NCBI GenBank assembly: GCA_903831745.1
Contig: CAIKYX010000261.1
Location: 4,685 to 68,684, forward strand
Reading direction: 5' to 3'
DNA length: 64,000 nucleotides
Origin: Oligoflexia bacterium
Lineage (GTDB): Bacteria; Bdellovibrionota; UBA1018; CAIMNF01
Every line of letters begins with the position of its first letter. Positions within the stretch are counted from its first letter, which is position 1. Below, in pieces: positions 5,164 through 42,200 of the stretch. The translations under genes and the position numbers were made by a program. The notes under the pieces are model-generated. The model had not been told where the DNA came from and did not search any database. It saw only the letters and a program-made list of their open reading frames with translations.

Positions 5164-5201
5164 AAATCTCCACCCTCATTGATTAAAGGGCTGATTTGCT
5201 T

Positions 5202-7147: not shown

Positions 7148-7176
7148 TACACACAATTAATAGATGAAGGGGCCCC

Positions 7177-24312: not shown

Positions 24313-24325
24313 AATCTTCCTATCA

Positions 24326-24637
24326 TCAATCTCTTAGCATTTGTATTTGATCAGAATCGACCGTTCGAAGCGTACGAAACAGCGCGATTACCAAGCCCAA
24401 GCCTACCGCAGATTCGGCGGCGGCAACCGTCATCACGAACAACGCGGTCAGATCGCCCTCTACCAAATGATGAATTCTCGAGAACGCCACAAAACACAAA
24501 TTCACCGAATTCAGCATCAGCTCGATGCTCATCAACATGATGAGCAGGTTCTTTCGGACAATTACGCCCAGAAGCCCGATGGTAAAAACAATCATCGCCA
24601 CAATCAAAAGCATCCAAGGCTGAAGTTCTGGAATCAT
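24326..24637 (-). CDS. nuoK: NADH-quinone oxidoreductase subunit K
   Basis: MSIELMLN and VAAAESAVGL (both conserved Glu). Confidence 0.96.
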   Translation of the reverse strand: MIPELQPWMLLIVAMIVFTIGLLGVIVRKNLLIMLMSIELMLNSVNLCFVAFSRIHHLVEGDLTALFVMTVAAAESAVGLGLVIALFRTLRTVDSDQIQMLRD

Positions 24638-25616: not shown

Positions 25617-26696
25617 TTAGAGCACTCCTTTATAAATCAACAAGCCCGTAACAAATACATTGATCAGGGCGATGGGAAACAACACTTTCCAACCTAGTTT
25701 CATCAATTGGTCGAAACGAAAGCGCGGCAAGGTCCAGCGAACCCAGACAAAGAACCACATCCAAAATGCGACCTTGATGACAAACGAAACACCCTGAAAG
25801 AAAACCAGAATCAATTGAGCATGCTCGGTTCCTGCGAATTGGCCTGCAAGCCAGCCAAACCCCGGAAGGAGCTGCCAGCCGCCGAAAAAGAGTGAAGTAA
25901 TCAGGCCTGACGCCACAGCCATATTGATGAATTCGGCCATCATGAAAAGCGCGAACCTCATCGATCCGTACTCGAGATGGTAACCGGCAATCAACTCGGA
26001 CTCACCCTCTGGCAAATCGAATGGCAGACGGTTCGTCTCGGCAAAAACCGAAATGAGAAAAATAATGAACCCGACCGGCTGGATGAAAATTCCCCACTTT
26101 GGAATATCGAGTCCTGCAATCGAAACCAGGGTTTCACCCTGAGCTGCAGTGATGTCACCGAGCTTCACACTTTGAAACACCATGATGATACCGACAATCG
26201 ACAATCCCAGAGTCAATTCATAGCTGATCATCTGAGCAGAAGACCGAAGGCTTCCCAAAAGTGAATATTTATTATTCGACGCCCAACCCGCCATGATGAT
26301 TCCGTAAACGCCGAGTGAAGCGACTGAAAAACAATACAAGATACCCACATCGAGATTGGCAACCTGAAAGATCGCCTCAGAGCCATTCCATGACATTGAA
26401 CCCGCGAATGGAATGACTGCAAAAGTCATGAAGGCGGGGATAACCGCGAGCCAAGGAGCAAGCGAGTAATAGAATTTGTTGACGTGGCCAGGAGGGCTGT
26501 CTTCTTTGAAAATAAACTTAAGCACATCGCATGCGGCCTGAAACATCCCGAACGGCCCCATGCGGTTTGGTCCGAGACGATTCTGTAAAAGCGCTGATCC
26601 CCTGCGTTCTACAAACAACATGATCGGAACCACGGCAAGGAGTCCCGCCAGCACTACTGCGATCTTAATCATCATGAACGACATTTCGAAACTCAT
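25617..26696 (-). CDS. nuoH: NADH-quinone oxidoreductase subunit H
   Basis: ERR..Q.R.GPNR.GP, RSSAQMISYE, ETNRLPFDLPEGESEL, PRFRFDQLM. Confidence 0.97.
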   Translation of the reverse strand: MSFEMSFMMIKIAVVLAGLLAVVPIMLFVERRGSALLQNRLGPNRMGPFGMFQAACDVLKFIFKEDSPPGHVNKFYYSLAPWLAVIPAFMTFAVIPFAGSMSWNGSEAIFQVANLDVGILYCFSVASLGVYGIIMAGWASNNKYSLLGSLRSSAQMISYELTLGLSIVGIIMVFQSVKLGDITAAQGETLVSIAGLDIPKWGIFIQPVGFIIFLISVFAETNRLPFDLPEGESELIAGYHLEYGSMRFALFMMAEFINMAVASGLITSLFFGGWQLLPGFGWLAGQFAGTEHAQLILVFFQGVSFVIKVAFWMWFFVWVRWTLPRFRFDQLMKLGWKVLFPIALINVFVTGLLIYKGVL

Positions 26697-28108
26697 GATA
26701 CGGCTCCCGCCAGTGCTTTTTTATTCATCGCAAGCATCAGTACCTCAGAAAAAGCCTTGCACCGACCTCCTGGCAACACAGCTCGTCTCAGTTTTTGTTC
26801 GATTCCCATGTGATTGATGACAGTTCCGTCTTTTTCGGTAAACGAAAAACCCGGTAGCACCAGACTCAGGCCCGCAGTATCGGCCGCGAGAAACACACCC
26901 ACTCCAATGACTTTCTTAGCCTTGATGGCTGGAAGCACCGCACGTCCACCCCGAAAAACAATGACCGTGTCTGTCGATGATTTTCCGGAATAGGCGGGGA
27001 TGCCCAACTTTTCAGCACCATTCAAGTTCGAGGTCTTGCTCTTCATCTTCAGGATGGTGTCTTGCGGTCCATCCTGCGCGGTCGACTCAACTCCCTGAGT
27101 TCCAAAATGTTCTACTGTGATTTTTGAAAGGCCTGCGAACTCTTTGATCGTCGCCATTTCTTCAAGCGTCAGATCCGTACCCACCAGAAACGAAACTTTC
27201 GAAGCCGAAATTTCAGCCCGGAAGCTTTCCATGGCAGAATCCCACGAGGCCTTGATCAATTCTCCGGCGTCTCGTTTCATCGGCTCGAGAACGCGGGTAG
27301 GGTCCTGGGTATAGCGATAATTGAATCGACCTTCATCACACATCCAGAATTTATTGATTTGTTGGTTTTCGATAGGAACACAGCGGTAGACCACGTTGCC
27401 TTCGTGTTGAACTTCGATATTACAACCTTTCGAACACCCTTCACAAACAGACGCGGTTTTCTTCAGCATCCATGCGCGTTTACGAAAGCGAAAATCCTTA
27501 AGCGTCAAAGACCCGGTCGGGCAAATATCGGAATAATTTCCGGCATACTCGGTTTGAAGTTGTTTGCCGTCGATAGTGGTGATGTCGATATTATTTCCGC
27601 GTTGAACCGCCACCATTTCATGAATGCCTGCAATCTCATCGCCAAAGCGGATACAGCGAGTGCAATGAATACAGCGATTCATGTTCTTTTCGATGACCGG
27701 CCCCATGTCGACATCGACAAACGTTCTTCGCTCTTCTGAATGGCGCATGGTCGCATTGCCGTAACCGAAGGAATTATTCTGAAGATCGCATTCTCCCGAC
27801 TTATCACAGATCGGACAATCGAGCGGGTGATTGAGGAGCAAAAACTCCATCGTGCCTGCTCGCCCTTTGATTACATTTTCTGAATTGGTCTTTACCACCA
27901 TGCCTTCGCCGGCCATGGTCGAGCACGCCGTCTGAAGTTTTGGCATCTTCTCGACTTCGACATAACACATGCGACATTGGGCAACGACACTGAGGCCCGG
28001 GTGATAACAAAATACCGGAATCTCGACTCCCGCGCGCGCAGCGACTTTGATCAGATTTTCTCCGGCCGTAAATTCGACTTCCTTACCGTCGATCGTGCAT
28101 TTAGGCAT
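26693..28108 (-). CDS. nuoG: NADH-quinone oxidoreductase subunit G (short, about 471 aa)
   Basis: FCYH...CRMC, HPLDCPICDKSGEC, RCIHCTRC, CPTGSL, CEGCSKGC...C. Start taken at MPKC. Confidence 0.95.
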   Translation of the reverse strand: MPKCTIDGKEVEFTAGENLIKVAARAGVEIPVFCYHPGLSVVAQCRMCYVEVEKMPKLQTACSTMAGEGMVVKTNSENVIKGRAGTMEFLLLNHPLDCPICDKSGECDLQNNSFGYGNATMRHSEERRTFVDVDMGPVIEKNMNRCIHCTRCIRFGDEIAGIHEMVAVQRGNNIDITTIDGKQLQTEYAGNYSDICPTGSLTLKDFRFRKRAWMLKKTASVCEGCSKGCNIEVQHEGNVVYRCVPIENQQINKFWMCDEGRFNYRYTQDPTRVLEPMKRDAGELIKASWDSAMESFRAEISASKVSFLVGTDLTLEEMATIKEFAGLSKITVEHFGTQGVESTAQDGPQDTILKMKSKTSNLNGAEKLGIPAYSGKSSTDTVIVFRGGRAVLPAIKAKKVIGVGVFLAADTAGLSLVLPGFSFTEKDGTVINHMGIEQKLRRAVLPGGRCKAFSEVLMLAMNKKALAGAVS

Positions 28109-29390
28109 ATTTCTTCTGTCCTTTGATATACGCTTCAAATTCTGGTCTGAATTTTTTTACAAAACTGATGACCGGGCCGGCAGCAGCGTCACCCAGTGCA
28201 CAAAGTGTTTTACCACCAATGTTCTGAGCCACTTCGACCAACAAATCTAGATCCTGCATTTTTGCTTCGCCCTTGATCATCTTATGAAGCAGGGATTCCA
28301 TCCAATGGCAGCCTTCACGACAAGGCGTGCACTGACCACAGGATTCATGGGCATAAAACTTGGTGATTCTGAGAAGAAGCTTAACCAGATCGGTATCTTC
28401 GTGAATAACCATGATCGCCGCAGACCCCATCATCGTGCCGATTTTTTGAAGCGGCTCTACATCGTAAATGACATCAATCTCGTCCGCAGTCAGAATCGGC
28501 GCCGATGAACCTCCTGGAATGACCGCCTTCAGGCGTTTATCACCCAGCATTCCGCCGCCCAGATCTTGAATGATCTGACGAAGGGTCATGCCACCCGCCA
28601 TCACCTCATATACTCCCGGTTTTTTTACGTGTCCCGAAAGCGAAATCAGGCGAGTTCCGCCCGACTTGTCGATCTTACCCATTTTTGCAAAACTTTCGCC
28701 GCTCATTCGCATGATAAATGGAATGTTCGCAAGCGACTCGACATTGTTAACCGCAGTTGGGCACGAAAATGCTCCTGAAGTTGCAGGAAATGGTGGTTTT
28801 ACCCGCGGTTCGCCGCGCTTACCCTCAAGAGAGTTCAAAAGCCCGGTTTCTTCACCACAGATATAGGCGCCCGCTCCGCGATGAACGGTAATATCGAGAT
28901 CAAACTTAGAACCCATGATGCCTTGGCCCAGATAACCCTTGGCATAAGCTTCTTGAATGGCTTCGTCGAGAAGCTTTGCTTCACGAACATATTCACCCCG
29001 AATATAGATATAGGCGTGCTTGCACCCAATCGCATAAGAACCAATCACGAGGCCTTCGATCAAAAGATGCGGAGTATAGCGCATGATCTGGCGATCCTTG
29101 CACGTTCCTGGTTCTGACTCATCGGCGTTGCAAACCAGATATTTTGGCTTTTCGCTTTGTTTGGGGATAAAGCTCCACTTCATACCGGTTGGAAAACCGG
29201 CGCCGCCTCGGCCTCGTAAATTTGCTTTCTTTACTTCATCAATGACCTGATCCGGTGTGAGCTCGGTAAGCACACGCTTCGCGGCCTGATACCCGTTCAT
29301 TTTTTCGAGATAATAAGAGAGTGCGCGATTTGAATCCTTAAAGAAATGCTGGATAAAAAGAGAGCCTTCGCTCGCTTTAACTTCACTCAT
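28101..29390 (-). CDS. nuoF: NADH-quinone oxidoreductase subunit F
   Basis: RGRGGAGFPTG, NADESEPG, GAGAYICGEET, ESCGQCTPCREG. Confidence 0.98.
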   Translation of the reverse strand: MSEVKASEGSLFIQHFFKDSNRALSYYLEKMNGYQAAKRVLTELTPDQVIDEVKKANLRGRGGAGFPTGMKWSFIPKQSEKPKYLVCNADESEPGTCKDRQIMRYTPHLLIEGLVIGSYAIGCKHAYIYIRGEYVREAKLLDEAIQEAYAKGYLGQGIMGSKFDLDITVHRGAGAYICGEETGLLNSLEGKRGEPRVKPPFPATSGAFSCPTAVNNVESLANIPFIMRMSGESFAKMGKIDKSGGTRLISLSGHVKKPGVYEVMAGGMTLRQIIQDLGGGMLGDKRLKAVIPGGSSAPILTADEIDVIYDVEPLQKIGTMMGSAAIMVIHEDTDLVKLLLRITKFYAHESCGQCTPCREGCHWMESLLHKMIKGEAKMQDLDLLVEVAQNIGGKTLCALGDAAAGPVISFVKKFRPEFEAYIKGQKKYA

Positions 29391-29878
29391 GAGCGCACCC
29401 CGCCTTCCTTGATTTTTTCGATATAGGCATTGAGCTTGTGAATATCCAATTCTTCGACGTAATCATCGTTCGCCATCATCGCGGGCGCAGCGGTACACGC
29501 ACCAAGGCACTCTTCTTCCGAAAGCGTAAAGAGACCGTCTTTGGTGGTTTCGCCACATTCGATTTCGAGTTTCTTTTCGGCAAATCCCATGAGCTCATCA
29601 GCACCGCGCAGGCAACAAGCCACATTGGTGCAGATCTTCAGATGCATTTTTCCGACGGGCTTAAGATTATACATCGTGTAGAAACTGGCGACCTCACGAA
29701 TTTGCGCCTCGTGCACACCGATGTACTCAGCAACCGCGGCCAGGCTTTCTTTTGGAAGCCAGCCATATTCCTTTTGTGCTTGATGAAGGGCCGGCAGAAT
29801 GAGTGCTTTCTTATTGGGATAGCGACTCTCGAGCTTCTTCATTTCTTCGTAAAACTTGTTTGATAATGGTGTACTCAT
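29387..29878 (-). CDS. nuoE: NADH-quinone oxidoreductase subunit E
   Basis: FYTMY, CTNVAC, ECLGAC. Confidence 0.96.
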   Translation of the reverse strand: MSTPLSNKFYEEMKKLESRYPNKKALILPALHQAQKEYGWLPKESLAAVAEYIGVHEAQIREVASFYTMYNLKPVGKMHLKICTNVACCLRGADELMGFAEKKLEIECGETTKDGLFTLSEEECLGACTAAPAMMANDDYVEELDIHKLNAYIEKIKEGGVRS

Positions 29879-29880
29879 GA

Positions 29881-31161
29881 TTATCGATCGAGCTCCCCGG
29901 CAATGACGTTGATACTTCCCAGTGCTGCCACCAAGTCAGCAATATACCCACCCTGAATCATCGGCGATAGGCCTTGATAATGCCAAAATGAGGGACTTCT
30001 AATCCGCATGCGATGAGCATTCACATCGCCTTTGCTGACGATATAAAAACCCAGTTCACCGTTTGCCGCTTCAAAAGCTGTGTAAGCCTCGCCCGGCGGA
30101 ACGTTGAAACCTGTCATGAAAAATTTAAAATGGTGAATCAAACCTTCCATTGTGTTGTACACGGCTGCTTTTTCTGGAATCCTGACTCGCTTGTCTTCGG
30201 ACCAAATCGGGCCACTTCGAATTTTGTCGCAACATTGTGAAATGATGTTCAGTGACTGCTTCATTTCTTCCATTCGCACGTAGTAGCGATCAAAAACATC
30301 TCCAACTCGCGCAATCGGCACATCGAAATCCATCTTGTCATAGAACATACAAGGTTGATCACGACGAAGATCGATATCGACTCCGGCTGCGCGCGCGTTC
30401 GGACCGGTAAAACTATAGTTCAAACACTGCTCTTTATTAAAGACTGCTACGTTCTTTGTGCGATTCAACCAGATGCGGTTGTCGGTGAGCAATCGATCCA
30501 TTTCATCGATGACGTCTCGGGTTTCCTTCACCCAGGCTTTTACGTCTTTTTCCCAACCTTCGGGCGCATCATACATCAGGCCGCCGATGCGGGTATAAGA
30601 CGTGGTCAGTCGAGCTCCACAGAGTTGTTCAATCAGCGTGTACGCTTTTTCGCGTTGATGATAGCCGTACAAGAAGTAAGAGAATGCCCCCAGGTCGACG
30701 GCGTTGATGCCGACGCAAATCAAATGATCAATGACACGCGCGAGTTCGGCGCAAATCATGCGAATCCAAGTGGCGCGCTCGGGAACCTCAACCCCCATCA
30801 ACCGCTCGACCGAAAGGGCGTAGGTAACGTTGTTGATCAATGACGAACAATAATTCAGACGATCGGTATAAACGATGAATTGATGATACGTGCGATTTTC
30901 GCCCAGCTTCTCTTTTGCCCGGTGGGTATAGCCGAATTCGCAGTACGATTTTTCGATGATCTCGCCATTCAACTTGGCCATACATCGAAACGCGCCATGC
31001 ATCGCAGGATGGGTCGGACCAATATTAACGATGACCCGTGAGTCTTCGAAAATATCGTCCGAGTCTTTTTTCAGAGAAACGTCGTAGTGCGAAGGAAAAC
31101 CCCAGCGGGCAATATCCAAAGGCACGTCCGGCTGAAGTGCGTTTTCTTTTTCATTTTTCAT
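29881..31161 (-). CDS. nuoD: NADH-quinone oxidoreductase subunit D
   Basis: GPTHPAMHG, DRLNY, GELGFY, C-terminal GELDR. Confidence 0.97.
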   Translation of the reverse strand: MKNEKENALQPDVPLDIARWGFPSHYDVSLKKDSDDIFEDSRVIVNIGPTHPAMHGAFRCMAKLNGEIIEKSYCEFGYTHRAKEKLGENRTYHQFIVYTDRLNYCSSLINNVTYALSVERLMGVEVPERATWIRMICAELARVIDHLICVGINAVDLGAFSYFLYGYHQREKAYTLIEQLCGARLTTSYTRIGGLMYDAPEGWEKDVKAWVKETRDVIDEMDRLLTDNRIWLNRTKNVAVFNKEQCLNYSFTGPNARAAGVDIDLRRDQPCMFYDKMDFDVPIARVGDVFDRYYVRMEEMKQSLNIISQCCDKIRSGPIWSEDKRVRIPEKAAVYNTMEGLIHHFKFFMTGFNVPPGEAYTAFEAANGELGFYIVSKGDVNAHRMRIRSPSFWHYQGLSPMIQGGYIADLVAALGSINVIAGELDR

Positions 31162-31718
31162 TTCAAGAGCTCCGGATCAATCGGTTCTGGATTCAAAAAC
31201 ACCTGGTACCCTCGAAGCGGGTAATCTTTTCTAAGCGGGTGACCTTCCCAGCGAACATCCATGAGAATTCGTCTCAGGTCGGGGTGTCCCTCGAAGCTGA
31301 TACCAAACATATCGTAAATTTCGCGCTCGGCCCAATTTGCGCCCGCCCAAAGCGGAATGAACGTGCCTATCTTTTCATTTTCCGACAAACGAACCTTGAT
31401 GCGAATGCGCGCTTTCGTTTCTGGATTCATCAGGTGAAACACAAGCTCAAAGCGGGGATCATTCTGCTCATCGACTGCCGTCATGTCGGTCAGAAAACTA
31501 TAATTGTATTTTTCCTTGAGGGTTTGCAGAAACGAATGGGCAATCGCTTTCTTTACGTAAAGAATCGGAAGATCGGTTGCATCTTGCCCAGGCTTCAGAA
31601 CTTTTTCGACTCCTGACGAGAACTCAGCCAGGATGGATTCAATCTGTTGATTCCAGATCTCACCGAATTTTTCAGGAAAATATCCGTAATTGCCGGGAAT
31701 CAGTGTTTTAACGTTCAT
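31158..31718 (-). CDS. nuoC: NADH-quinone oxidoreductase subunit C
   Basis: [32 protein letters not shown] 31718 has a GAGG SD and overlaps the nuoB end. Confidence 0.95.
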
Positions 31719-32250
31719 GACCCACCTCAAGTCCGAGACTTGCCGGACGTTTGCTGTCATTTCGAAGATTTTTCTCACGGTTTTGAGAATGGGTTTCGCC
31801 TCTTGCAATCATTTCTTGAAGGCGAAACAACGCATTCAAAAGTCCTTCAGGCGAAGGCGGACAACCCGGAACATAAACATCAACAGGCAAAACGGTGTCG
31901 ATTCCTTGGGTGACGCTATAGACATTGAAAATTCCACCGGACGAAGCGCACGCACCCATCGAAATGACCCATTTTGGATCGGCCATCTGATCGTAAATAT
32001 TTCTGAGGATGGGCGCCATTTTGAGATTAACGATACCGGCGCAAATCAAAAGATCGCTTTGGCGCGGAGAGAACCGCACCACTTCAGCTCCGAATCGGGC
32101 CATATCGTAGCCCGACGCCAAGGTAGACATCAGCTCAATGCCGCAGCAACTGGTTCCGAAGGGGAGTGGAAACAATGAGTTTTTCCGTGCCCAGCTGACG
32201 ACATGGTCTAATTTGGTGGTAAAAAAATCTGATGCTCCGTCTTTAGACAT
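31708..32250 (-). CDS. nuoB: NADH-quinone oxidoreductase subunit B
   Basis: [25 protein letters not shown]. Confidence 0.97.
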
Positions 32251-32263
32251 ATGTATTTCCTAC

Positions 32264-32626
32264 TTATTCCCAATTTAAAGCGCCTTTTCTGACGATATAG
32301 ACATAGCCCACAATCAGAACCGCTACGAAAGACAACATTTCAAGTAATACGAAATTTCCGGTCGACATGAATTTCTTAAAAACAACCGCCCAGGGATAAA
32401 AGAACACCGTCTCTACGTCGAACAACAAAAATAAAATGGCGACGAGGTAGAACTGAACCGATACGCGCTTGTGTTTTCCGGAGTCGACAGGCGGCACGCC
32501 ACATTCGACAGGAGAGTTTTTCATTCGATTGGGTAACTTGGGTCCGAGCAGTGATGTAATGACCAACACTGCTCCACCTACAGCGATCCCCGCTGACATC
32601 ATGACCAGCACAGGAAGGTAGTCCAT
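32264..32626 (-). CDS. nuoA: NADH-quinone oxidoreductase subunit A
   Basis: ECG loop, FLLFDVETVFFYPW, GALNWE. Confidence 0.96.
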   Translation of the reverse strand: MDYLPVLVMMSAGIAVGGAVLVITSLLGPKLPNRMKNSPVECGVPPVDSGKHKRVSVQFYLVAILFLLFDVETVFFYPWAVVFKKFMSTGNFVLLEMLSFVAVLIVGYVYIVRKGALNWE

Positions 32627-32673
32627 TTCCTTATCCTTTCCAAAAATTTCAAAAGGCTGTTTTTTTAGTCACC

Positions 32674-34038
32674 TTACCATAAATTAATAGCAGGGTGTTC
32701 ATTTAATAATGTGACCAGGGGCGCTCTCGACGCGGTTAAAAAGACGATGATGAACAAATAAAGCACAAAAAACAAGACTTCACCGGAAATCAGCTTCCGG
32801 TTCAAACCTGACTCACATTTGAATAATGCGATTTTTCCAACTTTTTGAATTGAAGAAGCGGTGGCACCGAACCAAGTAAGGGCAATCACAACGGCCAGGG
32901 GCAGAAGGTCAGCTGAAATCATTTCATGCATCAATCGAAAAAATTGATGTCCCATTTCAAGGGGCGGTGCACCGACCAAAGCGAAGATGGTGGCGACCAT
33001 CAGAAACTTGTTCTGATACTTCTCTTCTTGAAAAGAATAGCCCGCCAGCAGGAACGTGATCAAAAACGCCAGTGAAAGAATATAGAACGCCGGAAGCGAA
33101 TGGTCTCCTCCGAGTACCAACGAAAACCAGCCGATCCCACAGAGGCTTGGCAGAATCGCCGACAACCAATCCGCATGTCCAGTCGTGCGAATCGCGAGCA
33201 CCACGTAACGGATGGTGAAGCCAGAGAACAGCAGGCCTAGAAAAAGCTGAGCTGCGTTTTTTGACAAGAATTCGGAAGCGTTTAAGAAAGGAATACCAAT
33301 CCTCAGCCAAAACACCGATACCATGACAAAGGAAACCAGATTCATACAAGCCAAGGCAAACGGGCTTTTTCCTCTAAAGACATTACCATGGGTCATGACG
33401 GATCCCAGGGCGAACAAGATCACGCCCATTCCCAATAAGGAAAAGGACTTTTCATGATGAAGCTTGACCCATTCGATGTATTCCGAAAAATAAATCGACC
33501 CCGAGGACAAACTCGAAATCGTAAAGAACGCGAAAAACAGACCGAGTAAAAGTGAAAAACCAAACGCCTGTTGCCGAATGGTCTTAATCCAACCTTCGTG
33601 GAGCTTGCTCTCGACCAGAATCAAATTTCGTGCAGAAATAGCGGACCCAAGCCACGCAAGCGCGTAGAGCAAAATGCTGTTACTCATGAAGCCGAGGTCG
33701 AGAAACAAGCAAAGAAACAAAACAAATAGAAGCGCTCTTTGCTTTTCGAGGTAAACCATTCCTCTGTGCAAATGAATACTCAAAGAGCCCAAAATCAAAA
33801 GTAGGAGTGAAAAAATTCTGCCAAAATAGGTGACGGAATCAGAGACCAGGATTTTCTCAGGCGGTGAAAAATAGGCGAGATCGGTCCGCATCAGAAAAAA
33901 CGAAGCTCCGGCAAGTGTGAAGAGTGAAAACACGAGAGGCAACGAGCGATAAGTGACTGGCTTGAAATTCAAGGAAAGCATCGCCACAAAGAACTGCACT
34001 AAAATTAATAATTCCGGAATCCAGTCGAGAAGAATCAC
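32674..34038 (-). CDS. highly divergent NuoN-like membrane protein
   Basis: Last gene of the second cluster; multi-TM. SNSILLYALAWL ~ AKDLVVMFIALE, LVGAPPL ~ MAGMPL. GTG start overlaps the upstream stop (GTGA). Confidence 0.7.
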   Translation of the reverse strand: MILLDWIPELLILVQFFVAMLSLNFKPVTYRSLPLVFSLFTLAGASFFLMRTDLAYFSPPEKILVSDSVTYFGRIFSLLLLILGSLSIHLHRGMVYLEKQRALLFVLFLCLFLDLGFMSNSILLYALAWLGSAISARNLILVESKLHEGWIKTIRQQAFGFSLLLGLFFAFFTISSLSSGSIYFSEYIEWVKLHHEKSFSLLGMGVILFALGSVMTHGNVFRGKSPFALACMNLVSFVMVSVFWLRIGIPFLNASEFLSKNAAQLFLGLLFSGFTIRYVVLAIRTTGHADWLSAILPSLCGIGWFSLVLGGDHSLPAFYILSLAFLITFLLAGYSFQEEKYQNKFLMVATIFALVGAPPLEMGHQFFRLMHEMISADLLPLAVVIALTWFGATASSIQKVGKIALFKCESGLNRKLISGEVLFFVLYLFIIVFLTASRAPLVTLLNEHPAINLW

Positions 34039-35027
34039 AGATGGCCCACCCTTTCCAACCAGAAAAATGCCACTGCACAAAACAGCTGGGTCGCCACCAC
34101 GATATAGTAGCGAAATCGCACTGACGAGTTTGGCTCTCTCTCGCGGAACTCATGACCCACATTCAGGGCGAATGCCTGAAGCGTGAAGGCCACGATTAGA
34201 ACCCAGATCCAATTCACATTCAGAGCCACAATGCTTTTTAGTGAATAGAAGAGTCCCGAGCAAACCAGAAATCCAGGCATACCGGCCAAAAACACTCTCG
34301 AGAAAACCTCGGTCTTACGTCCTAATTGTTGCCCAAGCGAAATCAGAATGGGCGAAGTCATCATCACTACCGAAAGCGAAGCAATCGCCAAGCGAACCAA
34401 GGATTCTGAATCCACCATCAGGACAAACATGCTCAATCCCAACCAAGCTTGAGTCAGGTGAATCCACTTTGAACGCGACTTGCGCTTCATCAGGGATAAC
34501 CAGGAGCCTGCGAGGAAAGTGGATAACCCAAGAATGGTCAGAACCAGATCCCAAGTCTGGGTCCACTCGACTCTCATCTCGGGCTTGATTCTCATCAACA
34601 CATTCAGCGTCGCTAGCGCTGGCAAGAGGCTCGAGTACAAATAAGTGCGCTGGGTGACTCCATGTTCTTGCCTTTCAAAAATCAAAGACCAAAGAACCGT
34701 AGGCAAAGACAAGACTAACCCGATGAAAATCAGTAAGGAAGAGAGCGGACTTCCCTGAAGCGCAACGCCGAACAAGCTCACAAAAAGAAAGAAGCACCGA
34801 AGTGAAAAGTTCATTTGTGACAGGACCGCGTTCGAGCGCTTTCCTTGGCGGCTAGAAATCAAATACGAAGCCATGGTCAGCAGAATCAATAGAAGAATAC
34901 TGACTTCCATCGAACCCGAAAAAACCGCTCCTGCTGCAAGCGCGATCGGACCAAGCCCCACTGGGGTTGACGTCACCAACCACGCAATGACCATCACTGC
35001 ACTGAGAAAGCTCCAATCAAAATTCAA
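34035..35027 (-). CDS. highly divergent, shortened NuoM-like membrane protein (330 aa)
   Basis: GGAGG SD. HLTQAWLG ~ YSSISHLG, LAGMPGFLVCSGL ~ VALPGTMNFVGE. Position between L-like and N-like. Confidence 0.65.
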   Translation of the reverse strand: MNFDWSFLSAVMVIAWLVTSTPVGLGPIALAAGAVFSGSMEVSILLLILLTMASYLISSRQGKRSNAVLSQMNFSLRCFFLFVSLFGVALQGSPLSSLLIFIGLVLSLPTVLWSLIFERQEHGVTQRTYLYSSLLPALATLNVLMRIKPEMRVEWTQTWDLVLTILGLSTFLAGSWLSLMKRKSRSKWIHLTQAWLGLSMFVLMVDSESLVRLAIASLSVVMMTSPILISLGQQLGRKTEVFSRVFLAGMPGFLVCSGLFYSLKSIVALNVNWIWVLIVAFTLQAFALNVGHEFREREPNSSVRFRYYIVVATQLFCAVAFFWLERVGHL

Positions 35028-35868
35028 AGGAACCTCCTTTTTCGATCAGAACCACACCCACCCATAACACCACCATGATCAAGGTCCACCAAAAAATAGA
35101 TTGATAGGCCGGGGCAATCTCACCTGAATGTTCACGCTCGGCTTTTTCGAGCCAAAAGCGGCCAAATGTAGCTCGGTCACCGATCGCGCGGAAGGCGCGC
35201 TCACTTGAAGCCTGGATTCGATTCAACCATCCTTCAAAATCAGGGGTTTTAAAGTGGTTCCAAATGAAGATTCCAAGAAGCACGGTGAGAATCGCGCCTC
35301 CTGCAATGACCAATGGCTCACTCTCTGCGATCGTCATGACTGCCGGTCGAAAAGAAAGCAGCACGCCCACCAACAAGAAGGGCTCTAGCCATTTTTGAAT
35401 CAATTCCTGTTTTTTAACCTTGAGTGCCTTCAGTGATTCTTTGATCACCACCGACCCGACAGCGGTTCCTAAAACCACTTCCATGAACTCGGGTTGCGCA
35501 AAATAGCTTCGAGAAAGAATCAAAGCGACGACCACTCCCAAACGATCGAGTCCTCCAGAATAAGAGACCCCCAAGACCCCGAAGATCGTAAAAAACTCTC
35601 GGAAGGGTGCCGGTGCTGCCATGCCGATCAATAACAGTAAAATGGATACAGAATCTTTTACTCTGAAGGGGGTCGGAAGATTTTCGCGGGCTCTCGACCA
35701 GACCACGAGTGTCGCGGTCAGAATCGCAAAGACGTCGCCCTTTAAAAACGCACCGATGGCGATTGCAATAAACGGCAAAACAGTGCGCTCACGCACCAAG
35801 CCTAGAAGTGCGGCGAGAAAGAAATAGAGTGAAATCTGATTCAGCTGTAACCAATCATTCAGATTCAT
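35017..35868 (-). CDS. highly divergent, shortened NuoL-like membrane protein (283 aa)
   Basis: LQLNQISLYF ~ LRLDSLSAVF, FRVKD ~ NRIGD, C-terminal amphipathic stretch followed by HSG...Y and a final TM. Confidence 0.6.
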   Translation of the reverse strand: MNLNDWLQLNQISLYFFLAALLGLVRERTVLPFIAIAIGAFLKGDVFAILTATLVVWSRARENLPTPFRVKDSVSILLLLIGMAAPAPFREFFTIFGVLGVSYSGGLDRLGVVVALILSRSYFAQPEFMEVVLGTAVGSVVIKESLKALKVKKQELIQKWLEPFLLVGVLLSFRPAVMTIAESEPLVIAGGAILTVLLGIFIWNHFKTPDFEGWLNRIQASSERAFRAIGDRATFGRFWLEKAEREHSGEIAPAYQSIFWWTLIMVVLWVGVVLIEKGGSFEF

Positions 35869-36094
35869 GGTCGAGTTGAACTTCCTTTCTCAATACCATC
35901 ATGGCGCCAACCAGAATGATGGCGGTCAAAAAAACGGCTCCACCCAAAATCAAAGTGTCGTGACTTCTGAGCGCCAGAAGAGCATCTAAAACCAAGGCCA
36001 AACGCGCAACCCCAATAGAAACTCGGGGACCATCTTCAGCCATGAGAAGCTCAAACAAAGCATAAGCTAATAATAGAATCACAAACCAAATCAT
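35855..36094 (-). CDS. NuoK-like 3-TM protein lacking both conserved Glu
   Basis: 79 aa, three hydrophobic segments, ATGA overlap with J-like. Assignment mainly by position and size. Confidence 0.55.
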   Translation of the reverse strand: MIWFVILLLAYALFELLMAEDGPRVSIGVARLALVLDALLALRSHDTLILGGAVFLTAIILVGAMMVLRKEVQLDHESE

Positions 36095-36459
36095 CGTTTT
36101 CTTCTCTCCGTGATCAGGGCAATCAACGCTAGCGCCACTACCAAGGCCATTCCCAGATAAACAGGAAGCAACGGGCCATTCCAAAGATCTTCAGGCGACA
36201 GATCGACCTTCTTCTCGGGCTCTGGTCCGATCAGAGAAAGACCCACACTTACCGAAAGAATGAGCGCCAGAAATGCGGATTGCACCATTTTCAAGCGAGA
36301 CGCTCCCCGCGGACGGGTCCCTAAAAGCAAGAGAGTCTTCCAAAATTGGGCACCATAAAAGAGTCCGAGCAAAACAAGGAAGACTCCGAATGCAGGAACC
36401 TTCATGCCGAGGACGGCGGCGGTCGCAATCAACAGTGCCAGATCAAAAAAAACAATCAC
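36091..36459 (-). CDS. NuoJ-like membrane protein (122 aa)
   Basis: Hydrophobic, FYGA motif, LW...LLP before the last TM. GTGA overlap with I-like. Confidence 0.55.
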   Translation of the reverse strand: MIVFFDLALLIATAAVLGMKVPAFGVFLVLLGLFYGAQFWKTLLLLGTRPRGASRLKMVQSAFLALILSVSVGLSLIGPEPEKKVDLSPEDLWNGPLLPVYLGMALVVALALIALITERRKR

Positions 36460-36848
36460 CGTCGCCCCCTTCCAAAGCTCATCTTCAAATCATTCGGACT
36501 GAGTACGGCAGGCTGAATCTCTTTGGTCTGAACCAGAGCGTTTGGATCGCAAACATCGACACAGAACCCGCAAAAAATGCATTGTGAAAAATCGATATCG
36601 AATTTCGACACCCAAGGACGATGGCTTTTTTCGCTCTCCTGATATTCAAGTTCGATGCATTGCGTGGGACAAACTTTCACGCACTCTTCGCAAGCCGTGC
36701 ATTTTTCGATCGAATTAAAAATCAATCCTCGGGCCCGAGCCGGAAAATCGTCTTTTCCGCGCGATGAAACTGGGTCCGGATAAAACTCCGTATCAATTTT
36801 TCGGATTTCGCCTTCATTCAAAAGATGCTTCATTACCCGCTTAAGCAT
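36456..36848 (-). CDS. NuoI-like 2x[4Fe-4S] ferredoxin subunit
   Basis: YPD, RARG, CTACEECVKVCP, FDIDFSQCIFCGFCVDVC. ATG 36848 overlaps the H-like stop. Confidence 0.88.
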   Translation of the reverse strand: MLKRVMKHLLNEGEIRKIDTEFYPDPVSSRGKDDFPARARGLIFNSIEKCTACEECVKVCPTQCIELEYQESEKSHRPWVSKFDIDFSQCIFCGFCVDVCDPNALVQTKEIQPAVLSPNDLKMSFGRGRR

Positions 36849-37614
36849 GACTTCCCCCATAAGATACGAGGCCAAAAATGATCGCTGAAAACAACCAAAG
36901 CGCAATGGCCATCGGCAAGAGATAGACGAGGGATATCCTGAATAAGTCTTGCTTCGAATAAGCCGGAAAATACCGACCGAGCAGGCGGCACGCGACGAAG
37001 AGAACGGCGCTTTTCAGATGACCATCCAGAATAAAGAGATTGCCCTTCAAGAACAAATGAGTGGCAACCATGCACCAGCCATAAAACCTTGCCGACTGAA
37101 GCCAACTTTGTTCGCGCACGCCCGATTGAAACGGGTATTCGAGAAACAGAATCATTCCGGCAACCAAAAACAATGGCACAAACACCAAATGAAGAGGCGT
37201 CCATTCGTTTTGAATGAAAACACTCATGGCACTGAGGACGCCGAGCAGAGAACCAATCAGGAAAAATACCTGCGATCGATCCGCATTAATTCTGGCCTCG
37301 ACTTCATTGTTGAGCGGCGAAGCGGTCACCAACACCAGAGAATTGAGTGCCAGGTAGATTAAAAACACAGTCACAAAATTGTATTCGAGAAAAAACACCA
37401 GGCTGAGTTGAAGTACCAATACCGCCCAGGACTTCCACGCTCTCGAGGCGACCAGCTCTGACCATGAATCAACCCACAATTGATATAAAAACCCAGGAAA
37501 AGTAGCCCCTTTGCCCACGCGAGATTGATGGGTCACGTTCGTGCGCTCACTGATGCCGTAAACCAGGAAAGAAATCGGAAAAAAAATCAGAATCGAGATC
37601 AAAGTAGAAATCAT
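36841..37614 (-). CDS. divergent, shortened NuoH-like membrane protein (257 aa)
   Basis: ISERTNVTHQSRVG ~ VERRGSALLQNRLG, QLWVD ~ QAACD, EYPFQ ~ RLPFD. Confidence 0.7.
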   Translation of the reverse strand: MISTLISILIFFPISFLVYGISERTNVTHQSRVGKGATFPGFLYQLWVDSWSELVASRAWKSWAVLVLQLSLVFFLEYNFVTVFLIYLALNSLVLVTASPLNNEVEARINADRSQVFFLIGSLLGVLSAMSVFIQNEWTPLHLVFVPLFLVAGMILFLEYPFQSGVREQSWLQSARFYGWCMVATHLFLKGNLFILDGHLKSAVLFVACRLLGRYFPAYSKQDLFRISLVYLLPMAIALWLFSAIIFGLVSYGGSHA

Positions 37615-38636
37615 CGATCAATCTCCGTCACCAGGAAACCCAGGCTTTTTAAAATCAGAGGAGTGTCTTCAAAATATTCACTTTCGAGGGCAGGAATGAT
37701 GGCTCCCAAAATGGCGTCGGACGGAGTTCCGACCTTCATTGACTCGACTTTAAGATCTTCGCCGAGCTTCAACTCAAGCGCCCATTCACCTCGCCAGCAA
37801 ACCAAATCGCGAGTGCTCGCGGGCTTGATTCGTTTATTCCAACCTTCTACCAAAAATGCACCCTTATGGGGAGTTGCAACCAAAGCCATGATTTCGTCCG
37901 CACAACTGCGGGTGCAATTCAGCACAAACACCAAGCGCGACTCGACTTGACTGACCAGGCCTACATGAGTCGTCTGCACAGACGTTTCACTGACAAATCC
38001 GAACTTGCCTCCATCGACTACCGTGCCAATTGCTTGAAGGCGGTTTTGAAACGTATGTGACCAGAGAAACATCGACTGAATCCGGTCGAAATCTGCGAGG
38101 TAATTTTTAATCCAGATCTCTATCCGCTCGAGGAATCCTTCGGTAATATCGTATCGAACGCCGCCTGCGCGGACGAAACAATATCCATACCGTGAGCCCG
38201 TCAAAAGCTCGGTCAAATCGAGAAGCTCCTCACGGTGTTTGAGGAGAATATTCTTCAGGATCAATAGCCCCATCGCTTCAGCCATGACCGCCAGATACTT
38301 AAGCATCGAACTGAACTCACTCACCGTGGTCGATACTTCTCGAATCCAAACGGCACGGTCTTCGACACTCCATCCGAGACACTCTTCTACTGCTTCAGAA
38401 AAAATCCGATCGAGCAGGACTGCGCTTTCGGGCTCGATTCGAGAGAACCAATGGCGCGCTTGAACAAAAGAAGTTCCCAATATTTTTTTCTCTACATCTT
38501 TTTTCGCGTAGCCGAATTCATGAGCTCCGCTGACCATTTGATCTCCATGGAGATCAATCGAGAGCCGCATGGGGCCGGGCAACCAATGATGAATCGGACC
38601 TAAGTTCAGGCGAGACTGAATTTTGGGATCGTTCAT
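37611..38636 (-). CDS. NuoD-like protein without quinone-binding residues or NiFe ligands
   Basis: NLGPIH, EFGY, HREELLDL..LTGSR...GGV, RGE, TPS, terminal EIDR. No CxxC. ATGA overlap with B-like. Confidence 0.85.
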   Translation of the reverse strand: MNDPKIQSRLNLGPIHHWLPGPMRLSIDLHGDQMVSGAHEFGYAKKDVEKKILGTSFVQARHWFSRIEPESAVLLDRIFSEAVEECLGWSVEDRAVWIREVSTTVSEFSSMLKYLAVMAEAMGLLILKNILLKHREELLDLTELLTGSRYGYCFVRAGGVRYDITEGFLERIEIWIKNYLADFDRIQSMFLWSHTFQNRLQAIGTVVDGGKFGFVSETSVQTTHVGLVSQVESRLVFVLNCTRSCADEIMALVATPHKGAFLVEGWNKRIKPASTRDLVCWRGEWALELKLGEDLKVESMKVGTPSDAILGAIIPALESEYFEDTPLILKSLGFLVTEIDR

Positions 38637-39010
38637 TTTTGTCCCTCCCGCAGCGCCAGCAATCCATTCATGATGGCTTCGGGTCGCGGAGGGCATCCGG
38701 TCACATAAACGTTCACGGGAACTGACTCGTCCCGCTTGAGTGGAAAGAGTCCTCCGCCACAGGCACAGGTGCCAATCGCCAGCACATATTTCGGTGATTT
38801 CATCGCCGCGTAGTAAGTTTCGACTTCTTTTTGAAGTTTTTCGTTCAGAGTTCCCTGAATGATCAACAAATTTGCTTCATCATGATGATCCGCAGGCCGG
38901 CACCCCAGGCGCTCAAGGTCATATCGACTGGATTCGGTCTGCATCCAGTCGTCTCCACAGCAGGAAATGCCTACTCTAAAGTATTTGAGTGTCGGTTTAG
39001 TGGTTTTCAT
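38633..39010 (-). CDS. minimal NuoB-like [4Fe-4S] subunit (125 aa)
   Basis: SCCG, YDLERLG, PKYVLAIGTCACGGG, VTGCPPRPEA. Confidence 0.88.
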   Translation of the reverse strand: MKTTKPTLKYFRVGISCCGDDWMQTESSRYDLERLGCRPADHHDEANLLIIQGTLNEKLQKEVETYYAAMKSPKYVLAIGTCACGGGLFPLKRDESVPVNVYVTGCPPRPEAIMNGLLALREGQK

Positions 39011-39218
39011 CCCGGTCTTTCTTCAGAAAGTTCTGTGCACACAAAAAGAAAGACAAAAAGACTACCAACATGACCAAAATCGCGATTAAATAGGAAATAA
39101 TTTTGATCTCCTTTGAGATAAAAATCGGAAGCGAAAACAAAAGCGGAATCCAGAGGAAAATGATTCCCTGGGACAATTGTGTTGTCTTGATCTCAAACGG
39201 CAGTATTTTCTTGAACAT
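38997..39218 (-). CDS. small 2-TM protein, probable NuoA remnant
   Basis: 73 aa; KILPFE resembles the NuoA loop; first gene of the cluster, overlapping B-like by 14 nt. Confidence 0.5.
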   Translation of the reverse strand: MFKKILPFEIKTTQLSQGIIFLWIPLLFSLPIFISKEIKIISYLIAILVMLVVFLSFFLCAQNFLKKDRDENH

Positions 39219-39232
39219 AACTTCTTATACAG

Positions 39233-39262
39233 AGGCTACTTGAAAAGGAAAGGGTGAGTCAA
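39233..39262 (-). promoter_or_regulatory. candidate sigma70 promoter for the divergent nuo cluster
   Basis: Minus strand TTGACT-N18-TAGCCT in the 43-nt divergent gap; the -35 touches the mfd ATG. Confidence 0.35.
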
Positions 39263-42200
39263 TGGTCGGGAACCAGATCGAGCTAAAATTTAACTCGCTC
39301 CTCGCCCATGCTTTCTCGGTTTTGAAGCTTGCAACCCAAGCGGGACCGAAGAGCCCGCCCCTCATTGTGATCCTCATTCACTCAAAAGAGCTGCTTGAAG
39401 ATTACTTTTCACTGCTGCAAACGCTGATCAATGCAGATGGCCATGCCGTTTCACTTCACCAATGGCAAGCATGGGAACATCCACCGTTCTCGCCCGTTGC
39501 TTCGTCCATCACGCAGAAAATAGATCGCCTGAAGACCCTTTACTCGATTACGGGAGCTAAGACACCGACTATTGTCCTGGCGACCGTCGAAGCCTGGATT
39601 CAACCCACCGTTCCGAAGGAAAACTATCAAAGCAATCATTTGGTACTCGAATTGAATCAAGATGTGGGCTCTCGAGAACAGCTTCGAGAACGCCTGCAAG
39701 CCTTGGGGTACTTGAAAGCGGATGTTGTAGACGAGCCCGGTCAATATGCCGTAAGAGGAGAGATCCTAGACCTCTTTATTCCGCATGCTCCAGCACCTTA
39801 CCGGATTGAATTTTTTGACACGGTCGTTGAGGCCATTCGAACGTTTCATCCCGAAACCCAAAGAACCCAGAGTTCAAACGAGCCGATTCGAAGTCTCGAG
39901 ATCACTCCTGCCGAAGAAATTCTCTTTCCGTGGAAAGATTTCTCGGTAGTTCTAGAACGGGTAAAGGCCTATTCCGACCAGCGGCAAATCTCGAGAAAGA
40001 TCAGGGATCCGATTTTCGAGAACATTCGGAACGGCTTTTTGCCCGATCACTTTAGGACCTGGATTCCGTTTATTCATGAAAAATGCGGGGCACTTCTCGA
40101 TTATCTCCCCGAACACACGTCTTTAATCACTTTCGAGCCCGAACAACTCAAAATCGAGCTCACCCAAACCCTGGATTATCTCAAAAAAGAGGAAGTTCGC
40201 TATTCTCAACCTCACTGGATCACTCCCGATTTTTCTCAACTCTATTCTCGGGCAGAGGCGTTGCTCGCGCAAGCCATTCAGTCGTCGCGTTTCATCATTC
40301 GAAACGCCCCACTATCTGATCGGGCGCTCGCTCCGATTCCGTCTGAACCCGTTTCCGAGCTCAGGCTCGATGAAAAGGCCGTTTACGAGTGGCTTGAGGA
40401 CGGCTTCTTTGTCTGGATTGGAAGCCGTGGGATTTCTCATCAAGAGCGCCTGAAATTTATTTTAAAGCGGGTGCTCAGCAAGCCAGGCCTGAAATTTCTA
40501 GCGGACGACCCTCGCGAATCGCTGCAGTTCCTGACCGAAAAAACCATCATCTTATCGGAAGACCTTTTTCTCGGAAAGTCGCAGGCCGCAGTCAAGAAAA
40601 AGAGCACCCCACACGTGTTTCCGAAAACAGAGGGCCTGCCTTCCGAAGAACTCACTCACCTCAGTGATCTTTCGATCGGTGATTTTGTAGTTCATGCCAC
40701 CCACGGTGTCGGAAAATATGTGGCCCTTCAGGAACTTCAGTCCCAAGGAAGAAACCTGGGAGAATACCTTCTGATCGAATATTCGGGTGGTGACCGATTG
40801 TTTCTTCCGGTCTATCGCTTAAACACAATTCAGCGTTATGTGGGTGCGGGTGGAAACCCATCACTCGACAAACTCGGAACCGCCCAATTCGAGAAAGCGA
40901 AACAAAAAGCGCGTGACTCGGCCCGAAAACTGGCAATCAACCTGATCGAAATCTACGCGAAACGAGAACTCCTGAAGGGCGTTCCCTTCGCACCCGAAGA
41001 CCAGAGCTATTTCGATTTCGTAGACGAGTTCGAATTTCAGGAAACCGAAGGGCAACTCAAGGCCACACAGGACACACTTCATGACTTAGAGAGCGGAAAA
41101 TTGCTCGATCGTCTGGTGTGCGGAGACGTGGGATTCGGAAAAACCGAAGTGGCCATGCGGGCCGCCTTTCAAGCAGTGCAAAGCGGATACCAGGTGGCAC
41201 TTTTGGTACCCACCACCTTGCTTGCCTTTCAACACGAACAATCGTTTCGTAGGCGTTTTAAGAATTTTCCGGTTCAGATTGAATCGATTTCGCGCTTTAA
41301 ATCTAAGAAAATGCAGCAAGAGGTGCTGAAGTCGCTTGCGGAGGGAAAAATCGACATCCTGGTCGGAACCCATCGCCTGATTTCGAAAGATGTAGAATGG
41401 AACAAGCTCGGACTCTTGATCATTGATGAAGAACATCGCTTTGGGGTAGAGCACAAAGAAAAGATCAAGGCAGTGCAGGCCAACACCCATACCCTGACCC
41501 TGACGGCCACGCCGATTCCAAGAACCCTGAATATGGCTATTTCGGGACTAAAAGATATCAGCTTGATCAAGACGCCACCCACGAATCGTCAGCCGATTAA
41601 GACTTTCGTCTCTCACGACTCTGAAGAGTTGATCAAATCTGCGCTCGAAAACGAGCTCGCGCGAGGCGGCCAGGTGTTTTATCTCTACAACCGGGTTGCA
41701 TCAATCTTCAAGAAAGCGGAAGAGCTTCAAAAACTCGTTCCCCAGGCAAAAATCATCGTTGCGCACGGACAAATGAAAGAAGACGAAATTGAATCAAAAA
41801 TGATCGAATTCTATCAGGGTCAGGCGCAAATACTGGTGTGTACCACCATCATCGAATCCGGAATCGATGTGCCGAATGCCGGAACCATTATCATTCAAAA
41901 TGCGGATCGCCTGGGATTGGCCCAGCTCTACCAGATCCGCGGCCGGGTGGGACGGAGTCACCGAAAAGCGTTTGCCTATTTATTAGTCGATGAAGAAAGA
42001 ACACTTACCCAGGAAGCAAAAATGCGCCTCGATGTGCTTCAACGGTTCATCGAACTCGGAAGTGGCTTTCAGATCGCCTCGTACGATCTCGAAATCCGCG
42101 GCGGCGGTAACTTTCTCGGTGCAGAACAATCGGGTCACATCGCCTCAGTGGGACTCGATCTGTTTACCGAACTTCTCGAAGAAGCGGTACAAGAGCTGCG

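Follow-up and report, generated by a model that had tools for sequence, protein, structure and literature searches.

We analysed a 64,000-nucleotide (nt) stretch of contig CAIKYX010000261.1 from an Oligoflexia bacterium of the phylum Bdellovibrionota, here called the window, in which a first-pass annotation had pointed to unusual membrane-protein genes beside the operon for respiratory complex I. Positions 32674-36459 of the minus strand hold five tightly overlapping open reading frames (ORFs), named J2, K2, L2, M2 and N2, and the canonical nuoK, nuoL, nuoM and nuoN lie downstream, as had been annotated. These five genes are the membrane arm of a second complex-I-like cluster that exceeds this interval and reaches 39218, i.e., ten genes in the order A2-B2-D2-H2-I2-J2-K2-L2-M2-N2 (39218-32674, minus strand). 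The names were given by position in the nuo order, and protein N2 is distinct from the iron-sulfur (Fe-S) cluster N2. The complete canonical nuoA-N operon (19571-32626, minus strand) starts 47 nt downstream of gene N2 and provides an internal control.

All ten genes are co-oriented, and neighbours overlap by 4-20 nt. The peripheral part comprises B2 (38633-39010), a NuoB-like protein of 125 amino acids (aa) that matches PF01058 (2.9e-21) and the NCBIfam NuoB model (8e-34), D2 (37611-38636), a NuoD-like protein of 341 aa counted from the ATG at 38636 (the ORF extends to 38696) that matches PF00346 (2e-15), and I2 (36456-36860), a NuoI-like protein of 134 aa from the ATG at 36860 (ORF to 36905) with two [4Fe-4S] clusters, which matches Fer4 families and the NCBIfam NuoI model (9e-21). 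The membrane part begins with A2 (38997-39218), a two-helix protein of 73 aa in the nuoA position that is NuoA-like by position only, and H2 (36841-37614), a reduced NuoH-like protein of 257 aa vs 359 aa in the canonical subunit. It continues with J2 (36091-36459), a four-helix membrane protein of 122 aa in the nuoJ position, K2 (35855-36094), 79 aa with three helices in the nuoK position, read from the ATG at 36094 that its homologues use (ORF to 36184), and L2 (35017-35868), a membrane protein of 283 aa in the nuoL position. The last two are M2 (34035-35027), a truncated antiporter-like subunit of 330 aa with uncharged relay positions, and N2 (32674-34038), a full-length NuoN-type protein of 454 aa that starts with a GTG at 34038 overlapping the M2 stop codon (ORF to 34080).

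No genes for NuoC, NuoE, NuoF or NuoG are present among the ten, and the single PF00329 match in the genome (3.83 Mb, 91% complete) is the canonical nuoC. A six-frame search of the genome with PF00361 gave three matches only, the canonical NuoL, NuoM and NuoN. The 47-nt gap between N2 and nuoA carries an AGGA ribosome-binding site and folds no better than its shuffles (z -0.29), and the terminator scan found no terminator-like hairpin in it. Terminator-like sites numbered 16 vs 11.0 in shuffles (standard deviation 3.5), which is no excess, and the promoter scan found no minus-strand promoter-like site in 32200-39400. At the other end of the cluster, only 43 nt (39219-39261) separate the A2 start (39218, minus strand) from the start of a divergent mfd-like gene of 1156 aa (39262, plus strand), so that the promoters of the A2 unit and of the mfd-like gene must overlap or sit in coding sequence.

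Conservation, selection and sister lineages

The second cluster is order-wide in this Bdellovibrionota lineage. A profile made from D2 only, applied at E ≤1e-30, a cut-off that canonical NuoD does not reach, matched 47 of the 60 other genomes of the order and none of the 240 genomes sampled outside it. Matches to the N2 protein were narrower: of the 11 other genomes of the genus nine had one, and of 289 further genomes sampled in the phylum none did. The order B2-D2-H2-I2-J2-K2-L2-M2-N2-nuoA is kept in all nine genus loci compared, seven of them complete and two cut by contig ends, homologues of A2 (50-73% identical) lie upstream of B2 in all seven genus loci that include this region, and J2 orthologues are present in eight genus sequences. 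When the N2 profile was searched against 1.84 billion representative proteins, 26 were found at E ≤0.001, and 25 of these are the N2 family itself, full-length or fragmentary. The remaining match, a protein of 2457 aa with only 42 residues aligned, is probably spurious, and canonical NuoN was not reached by the N2 profile among these representatives. Word-indexed profile searches yielded at least five proteins for M2 and at least five for L2.

Divergence within the genus is uneven. Identity to the window is 64-71% for B2, 66-70% for I2, 44-47% for D2 and 38-41% for H2, and it falls to 28-35% for K2, 22-36% for L2, 27-39% for M2 and 29-37% for N2, while the canonical nuoB, nuoD and nuoA reach 84-90%, 82-88% and 66-74%, respectively. 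Membrane subunits that are shrunken and only 22-39% identical within the genus, against 59-90% for canonical nuoA-D, might be expected from a decaying duplicate whose genes are becoming pseudogenes. The selection analysis contradicts this. The ratio of nonsynonymous to synonymous substitution rates (dN/dS), calculated by NG86 for the computable pairs among four closely related genomes, with six pair values saturated in dS, was 0.000-0.115 for all ten genes and 0.000-0.061 for nuoA-C. In the closest pair it was 0.00 for A2, 0.033 for B2, 0.034 for D2, 0.025 for H2, 0.014 for I2, 0.050 for J2, 0.044 for K2, 0.056 for L2, 0.022 for M2 and 0.018 for N2, in comparison with 0.048 for nuoC; the ranges over pairs were 0.00-0.04 for A2, 0.05-0.12 for J2 and 0.04-0.07 for L2. 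All ten genes are thus under strong purifying selection, and because their dN/dS is nuoC-like despite the divergence, they are functional genes and not decaying copies. The ten frames are also open in the window and in the genus loci compared, the Fe-S ligands are invariant, and the cluster has been kept across most of the order. One TGA and one TAA occur inside N2 matches, in 2 of 10 genomes. On the strength of the dN/dS values we reject the pseudogene explanation, to which we attach almost no probability.

Larger versions of the cluster occur in sister lineages. In three genomes of the sister family f3, an 11-gene version, A2-B2-C2-D2-H2-I2-J2-K2-L2-M2-N2, lies directly upstream of the canonical operon and encodes L2 of 544-662 aa, M2 of 491-501 aa and N2 of 484-493 aa. 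In one of these genomes (G041) K2 matches PF00420 (3e-7), J2 matches PF00499 (7e-11) and C2 matches PF00329; L2 has no Pfam match in any of the three. Another genus of the window's family (G033:C13:402000-416000, 1352-8414) has ten genes without C2, with L2 of 414 aa, M2 of 353 aa and N2 of 389 aa. Even hhalign could not align the membrane subunits of this sister genus with those of the window genus or of f3, so the arm changes very rapidly from genus to genus and is constrained within each. From this series of sizes and gene contents, the version in the window genus appears to be an old 11-subunit duplicate at its most reduced, and since sister families still have C2, family f1 has lost it. 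In other families of the phylum (e.g., f15, f17 and f18), many genomes have two canonical-type nuoM and nuoK matches, which indicates a second ordinary nuo cluster, unrelated to the charge-stripped one described here.

Identity of the membrane subunits

The membrane subunits escape direct sequence comparison. BLASTP of N2, M2, L2 and K2 against the adjacent NuoN, NuoM, NuoL and NuoK gave no significant alignment, Pfam and NCBIfam models (E up to 1; A2 was left out of the Pfam scan) gave no match for H2, J2, K2, L2, M2 or N2, and no PF00361 match at gathering score was obtained for L2, M2 or N2. The N2 profile gave only a chance match among PDB sequences (E 0.86). The AlphaFold model of N2 (25 sequences), with a predicted local distance difference test score (pLDDT) of 86.8 and a predicted template-modelling score (pTM) of 0.89, was matched by Foldseek with probability 1.00 and template-modelling scores of 0.73-0.79 to NdhB, NuoN, MrpD, NuoM and MbsH. 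It superposed on NdhB with Z 35.7 and a root-mean-square deviation (rmsd) of 2.8 Å over 441 residues, and on Escherichia coli NuoN with Z 34.9. The model shows all 14 helices of an antiporter-like subunit, including two inverted five-helix repeats, and breaks in transmembrane helices (TM) 7 and 12 at 218-225 and 356-360. By hhalign, the genus N2 profile reaches the N2 of the sister family with a probability of 96% (E 4.6e-9, 432 columns), and the latter reaches canonical NuoN with 100% (E 1.7e-52). Structure and transitive profiles together settle N2 as NuoN-type.

For M2, the alignment to a 30-sequence NuoM profile had a probability of 42% (E 2.7e-4) and placed residues 95-288 against 206-424. 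The ESM Atlas holds its own model of M2 (pTM 0.77), whose matches, with template-modelling scores by query of 0.80-0.87 over residues 1-330, belong to seven cluster types, all PF00361. The NuoM alignment and these matches identify M2 as an antiporter core without TM1-3. Of the fold similarity to NuoL, NuoM and NuoN that superposition was expected to show, N2 (Z 35.7) and the M2 core gave clear instances and L2 a weak one (Z 6.4-8.7).

H2 is linked to NuoH through the sister family, since the genus H2 profile reaches sister-family H2 by hhalign (92%, E 5e-7) and sister-family H2 reaches canonical NuoH by BLASTP (5e-22). J2, K2 and L2 were assigned by inference from their conserved position in the lineage series.

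The L2 gene sits between the nuoK-type and the nuoM-type gene in all versions of the cluster. The first-pass annotation described its product, 283 aa vs 620 aa in canonical NuoL, as a minimised NuoL that keeps the transverse helix. In the AlphaFold model (13 sequences; pLDDT 73, pTM 0.72), seven short helices of 12-20 residues occupy positions 1-148, with a break at the invariant G44, and are followed by long helices at 154-181 and 184-206, the latter a TM, a helix at 211-230 (pLDDT ~55, hydrophobic moment up to 0.63), a disordered stretch and a final TM at 251-277. The C-terminal layout, a TM, an amphipathic segment and a last TM, is thus as annotated. The segment at ~208-235 is amphipathic in 13 of 13 family members (hydrophobic moment 0.40-0.65), and the corresponding value for the helix HL region of the window's canonical NuoL is 0.2-0.46. 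The linker between the last two TMs has ~44 residues vs ~70-80 in the window's NuoL, roughly half of HL. Invariant residues of L2 are R26, E27, R59, E130, E144 and E162, the last of which opens a hydrophobic helix. The RxxD motif said to be retained in L2 did not hold up, as the RAIGD at 226-230 is unique to the window sequence.

The L2 model was also compared with 48,161 representative chains by VIA-align, and 22 of the best 24 rows were antiporter-like, i.e., chains from complex I, NDH-1, Mrp, MBH or MBS entries; several of these chains are matched by the N2 model as well. The superpositions had Z 6.4-8.7 over ~154-192 residues, a range in which (below ~13 for helical proteins) a match may reflect a common helical arrangement only. 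Typically they covered residues 1-154 at an rmsd of 3.1-3.5 Å, and the NuoL, ND5 and MrpA rows extended to residue 214-259. We regard this enrichment of antiporter-like chains as suggestive.

An alternative origin of L2 has to be weighed here, namely that an unrelated membrane protein replaced the NuoL2 subunit and that its amphipathic helix has nothing to do with HL. Profile comparison fits such a replacement: L2 scored below 2% probability by hhalign against the N- and C-terminal NuoL profiles, its match to the 414-aa L2 of the sister genus was a local one of 39 residues with 1% probability, and it had no similarity to sister-family L2, which itself has no Pfam match in 3 of 3 sequences. Neither Foldseek nor the ESM Atlas, where the L2 model has a pTM of 0.33, returned a usable match. 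Against replacement speak the occurrence of an L2 gene between K2 and M2 in every version, in graded lengths (544-662, 414 and 283 aa), the collinearity of residues 66-310 of sister-family L2 with NuoL 76-311, albeit at 10% probability, and the predominance of antiporter-like chains among the best structural matches. We therefore think it rather unlikely that L2 is of foreign origin, and prefer to see in it a probable shrunken descendant of a NuoL-position subunit. The description as a minimised NuoL thus finds support in gene position, the length series and a weak fold match but not in profile similarity, and of the transverse helix the amphipathic C-terminal segment is present whereas homology to helix HL was not found. 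By analogy with HL in complex I, the amphipathic segment and the anchor helix would probably run along M2.

Redox module and charged relay positions

The Fe-S ligands of the second cluster are preserved. In alignments of 13 sequences that cover the window genus, its sister genus, the sister family and the canonical proteins, no sequence lacks any of the four B2 Cys that bind Fe-S cluster N2 or of the eight I2 Cys. D2 is best matched among NCBIfam models by NuoD and FpoD, aligns over its full length with canonical NuoD minus two loops, and shares the C-terminal E-I-D-R of NuoD. Where NuoD has the His of M-H-G and the Tyr of N-Y-C, all six aligned genus sequences have Pro, and the two columns are substituted in all eight second-cluster D2 sequences. 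We take these columns to be the quinone head-group ligands, H38 and Y87 in Nqo4 of Thermus thermophilus. A hydrogenase was considered and rejected as improbable, because D2 is without the Cys motifs and scores best as NuoD or FpoD. In the second-cluster I2 proteins the first cluster motif is preceded by a shared sequence, T-E-x-Y-P-D-P-[VI]-S-S-[RK]...P-[AP]-R-x-R-G, where canonical NuoI has a shorter and different stretch.

The charged residues of the canonical membrane arm are fixed in the controls from the phylum: E135, K222, K253 and E395 of NuoM in 30 of 30 sequences, E39 and E75 of NuoK in 29 of 29, and E137, K221 and K403 of NuoN in 12 of 12. The window's own NuoL has the expected Glu, Lys, His and Lys. 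The TM8 position of canonical NuoN is more variable, with Lys in 8, Thr in 3 and Ala in 1 of 12 sequences, and the window's nuoN (19571-21043) has Thr251.

None of ten genus sequences has the expected charge at TM5, TM7, TM8 or TM12, in either N2 or M2. In N2, ALE of TM5 corresponds to A-W, FKVAA of TM7 to FALGS, the TM8 position to hydrophobic residues and FTKY of TM12 to F366; over the ten sequences, columns 128-131 are without acidic residues, 210-213 and 238-240 are without basic ones, and 366 is uncharged. In M2, the TM7 position falls in L-S-L-P-T-V and is basic in 0 of 10 sequences, with P109 kept in all ten, the TM8 Lys falls in an alignment gap, and the TM12 Glu corresponds to S-G-L with no acidic residue at 257-259 in any sequence. 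The replacements listed in the first-pass annotation, AWL for ALE and FALGS for FKVAA in N2, the LSLP region for IKVP and SGL for VGE in M2, were thus reproduced by profile-profile alignment with 0 of 10 sequences charged. The loss of both Glu that it ascribed to the K-like protein was likewise seen, K2 having no conserved Glu in its three helices (10 genus sequences) where canonical NuoK has E39 and E75. In hydrophobic surroundings, R32 is the only conserved ionisable residue of K2 and R244 the only one of M2. N2 has E9 (TM1) and R74 (TM3), which are conserved in the genus and correspond to E10 and R79 of sister-family N2. Canonical NuoN does not conserve this Glu and Arg, which may be a buried pair specific to the family, on the side towards K2 and J2.

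The loss of the relay had already begun in the sister family. In the three f3 genomes, N2 has Q, G and Q for the TM5 Glu, Q, G and L for the TM7 Lys, R in all three at TM8, and R, K and K for the TM12 Lys. M2 of the same genomes has A, F and G for the TM5 Glu, R in all three for the TM7 Lys, A, S and P for the TM8 Lys, and H, L and H for the TM12 Glu, and K2 has Q, H and Q for the first Glu and P, M and Q for the second. Since f3 is already partly stripped, the relay loss is old and more complete in the window genus.

Interpretation and comparison with known systems

Taken together, the sequences and models point, with a probability that we put at about 0.7, to a second, strongly reduced complex-I-type assembly that descended from an ancient duplicate 11-subunit nuo cluster and whose membrane arm would be a scaffold without the canonical proton relay. 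The function of the cluster is probably other than pumping. The first-pass annotation was largely right in this respect, its observations being confirmed in part and its interpretation supported in part: architecture kept while transport chemistry was not describes N2 and M2 well, with their retained fold, uncharged relay and purifying selection, and L2 less well.

Several results weigh against this reading. The fold evidence for M2 comes from the ESM Atlas's own model with a pLDDT of 0.70, and the mapping of its residues depends on the 42%-probability alignment. The best Z of L2, 8.7, lies within the range of a possibly common helical arrangement, and the best Foldseek match of the L2 model (E 0.065, template-modelling score 0.15) was to G-protein-coupled receptors. 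Sequence comparison did not link K2, J2 and L2 to NuoK, NuoJ, NuoL or their sister-family counterparts: hhalign gave at most 5% probability against canonical and sister-family profiles, sister-genus proteins, M2 or N2, and K2 reached 0.9% against NuoK and has no PF00420 match. Their assignment is therefore by gene order only. Finally, some charges have been kept, i.e., K/R224 of N2 in 8 of 10 sequences, in the loop of the TM7 break; D/E364 in 8 of 10 (His in the window) and K/R368 in 6 of 10, at the start of TM12b; the invariant R246 of N2, which aligns to a conserved Arg at the TM8 end of canonical subunits; R119 (9 of 10), R/K146 (10 of 10), K/R148 (10 of 10) and K/R264 (9 of 10) of M2; and the invariant E130, E144 and E162 of L2. 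Such residues could provide a non-canonical ion path.

An arm that still translocates ions over a re-wired path of these family-specific charges would agree with their semi-conserved to invariant state in the genus, with the Arg or Lys that sister-family N2 keeps at TM8 and TM12, and with the purifying selection, by which the membrane subunits must do more than fill space. Alternative Lys or Glu at the broken helices had been named as what would speak against the first interpretation, and semi-conserved charges do lie near both breaks of N2, although the canonical positions themselves are uncharged. In N2, however, only R246 is invariant, and canonical subunits have that Arg besides their relay, and position 364 is His in the N2 of the window itself. 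For the TM5 Glu/TM7 Lys pair, invariant in the controls, there is no substitute in the same helices, and K2 is without both Glu. The NuoK Glu pair links the E-channel to NuoN in complex I. A re-wired pump is in our opinion improbable, and we favour the scaffold arm. That the arm does not pump is a reasonable inference from the residues, and it stays one because the alternative charges near the TM7 and TM12 breaks might form a path.

The gene content raises a further question, i.e., whether the ten proteins are alternative subunits that join the canonical NuoC, NuoE, NuoF and NuoG to give a hybrid form of complex I whose arm does not pump. The cluster is without NuoC, which the genome encodes once, family f1 must have lost C2 as the sister families have it, and the ten genes are co-oriented 47 nt upstream of nuoA with no terminator-like hairpin in between. 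On the other hand, D2 and B2 share only 25-40% identity with NuoD and NuoB, so that the interface for canonical NuoC may be lost, and the 11-gene version of f3 is also without E, F and G, like stand-alone 11-subunit enzymes. A hybrid isoform seems to us a minority option beside a separate reduced assembly.

We propose that the ten proteins would form a membrane-anchored Fe-S electron-transfer complex, with the membrane arm acting as a scaffold in which the canonical proton relay does not operate. Electrons might be received at I2, donated by a ferredoxin-like protein or by borrowed canonical Nuo subunits, pass to the Fe-S cluster of B2 and leave at the remodelled pocket of D2 and H2, and the acceptor would not be bound in the way ubiquinone is in complex I. 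More speculatively, the cluster could be a naturally selected pump-dead complex I, an order-wide paralogue that keeps the Fe-S wire and the coupled scaffold of H2, J2, K2, three antiporter-fold subunits and a clamp helix without proton relay or quinone ligands. It might then work as a non-electrogenic redox enzyme or as a sensor of redox state or voltage, and NuoC and the N-module might be supplied by the canonical operon, co-transcribed with it. This fuller proposal is tentative, and we hold it to be clearly less probable than the reduced assembly as such.

The coupling of quinone reduction to proton pumping up to 200 Å away is still debated, and the debate relies on mutants of the very residues that are absent here. 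If the pump-dead proposal is true, the cluster is a natural dissection of complex I architecture from its chemistry, and a natural control indicating that functions other than pumping can preserve the antiporter fold, and perhaps the lateral clamp. It would also define a minimal scaffold, with a NuoL-position protein of 283 aa and a NuoM-position protein of 330 aa, that is kept across the order, and it points to a redox function via the N6a/N6b/N2 wire without the canonical quinone site.

No published description of this second cluster was found in literature searches. Predatory Bdellovibrionota are reported to have two ordinary nuo clusters with 37.5-41.5% identity, in the part of PMC13147790 that was available, and not the cluster described here; the accessible portion of PMC12361115 contains no mention of Bdellovibrio or second copies. 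Ehr complexes belong to the superfamily of complex I and group 4 hydrogenases, are without catalytic-site ligands and have no known function, and they keep Mrp antiporter-like subunits presumed to translocate charge (PMC6349859, from the text at hand). By analogy they may be the nearest ligand-less relatives of our cluster in this superfamily, with the difference that D2 scores best against NuoD and FpoD and not against hydrogenase large subunits.

Metazoan ND2 works without three N-terminal helices and keeps its relay residues; M2 resembles it in the missing TM1-3 and differs in the relay. The best precedent for M2 and L2, as far as the analogy and the available part of the preprint go, is probably DabC of the DAB1 CO2-uptake system, a half-size protein without a Pfam match whose helices align with NuoM, whose relay positions are hydrophobic, and which is required in vivo and judged structural, not catalytic (bioRxiv 10.64898/2026.05.01.722082). 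DabC partners the pumping DabB and a carbonic anhydrase, whereas the window cluster is without DabA and DabB, and every antiporter-like subunit in it is stripped.

The 11-subunit relatives of complex I, NDH-1 and Fpo, keep the relay residues and pump. These enzymes, cyanobacterial NDH-1 and Fpo, are described as 11-subunit forms without the N-module (Moparthi and Hagerhall 2011, PMC3144371), and, on that description, the f3 version has exactly their set, A, B, C, D, H, I, J, K, L, M and N. The best structural matches of protein N2 are NdhB chains. Unlike these relatives, the window cluster has lost the relay residues and, in this genus, the NuoC homologue. With canonical complex I (NDH-1, NuoA-N; PDB 7z7r and 4he8) it shares the order A, B, D, H, I, J, K, L, M, N, the NuoB-type ligands of Fe-S cluster N2, the eight Cys of NuoI type and a D2 of NuoD type. 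It differs in having no C, E, F and G, in its shorter membrane subunits (L2 283 vs 620 aa, M2 330 vs 475, H2 257 vs 359), and in the absence of the TM5 Glu, the TM7 and TM8 Lys, the TM12 Lys or Glu, the NuoK Glu pair and the His and Tyr of NuoD. Because the two operons adjoin in the same genomes, the canonical and the second complex are directly comparable in one host.

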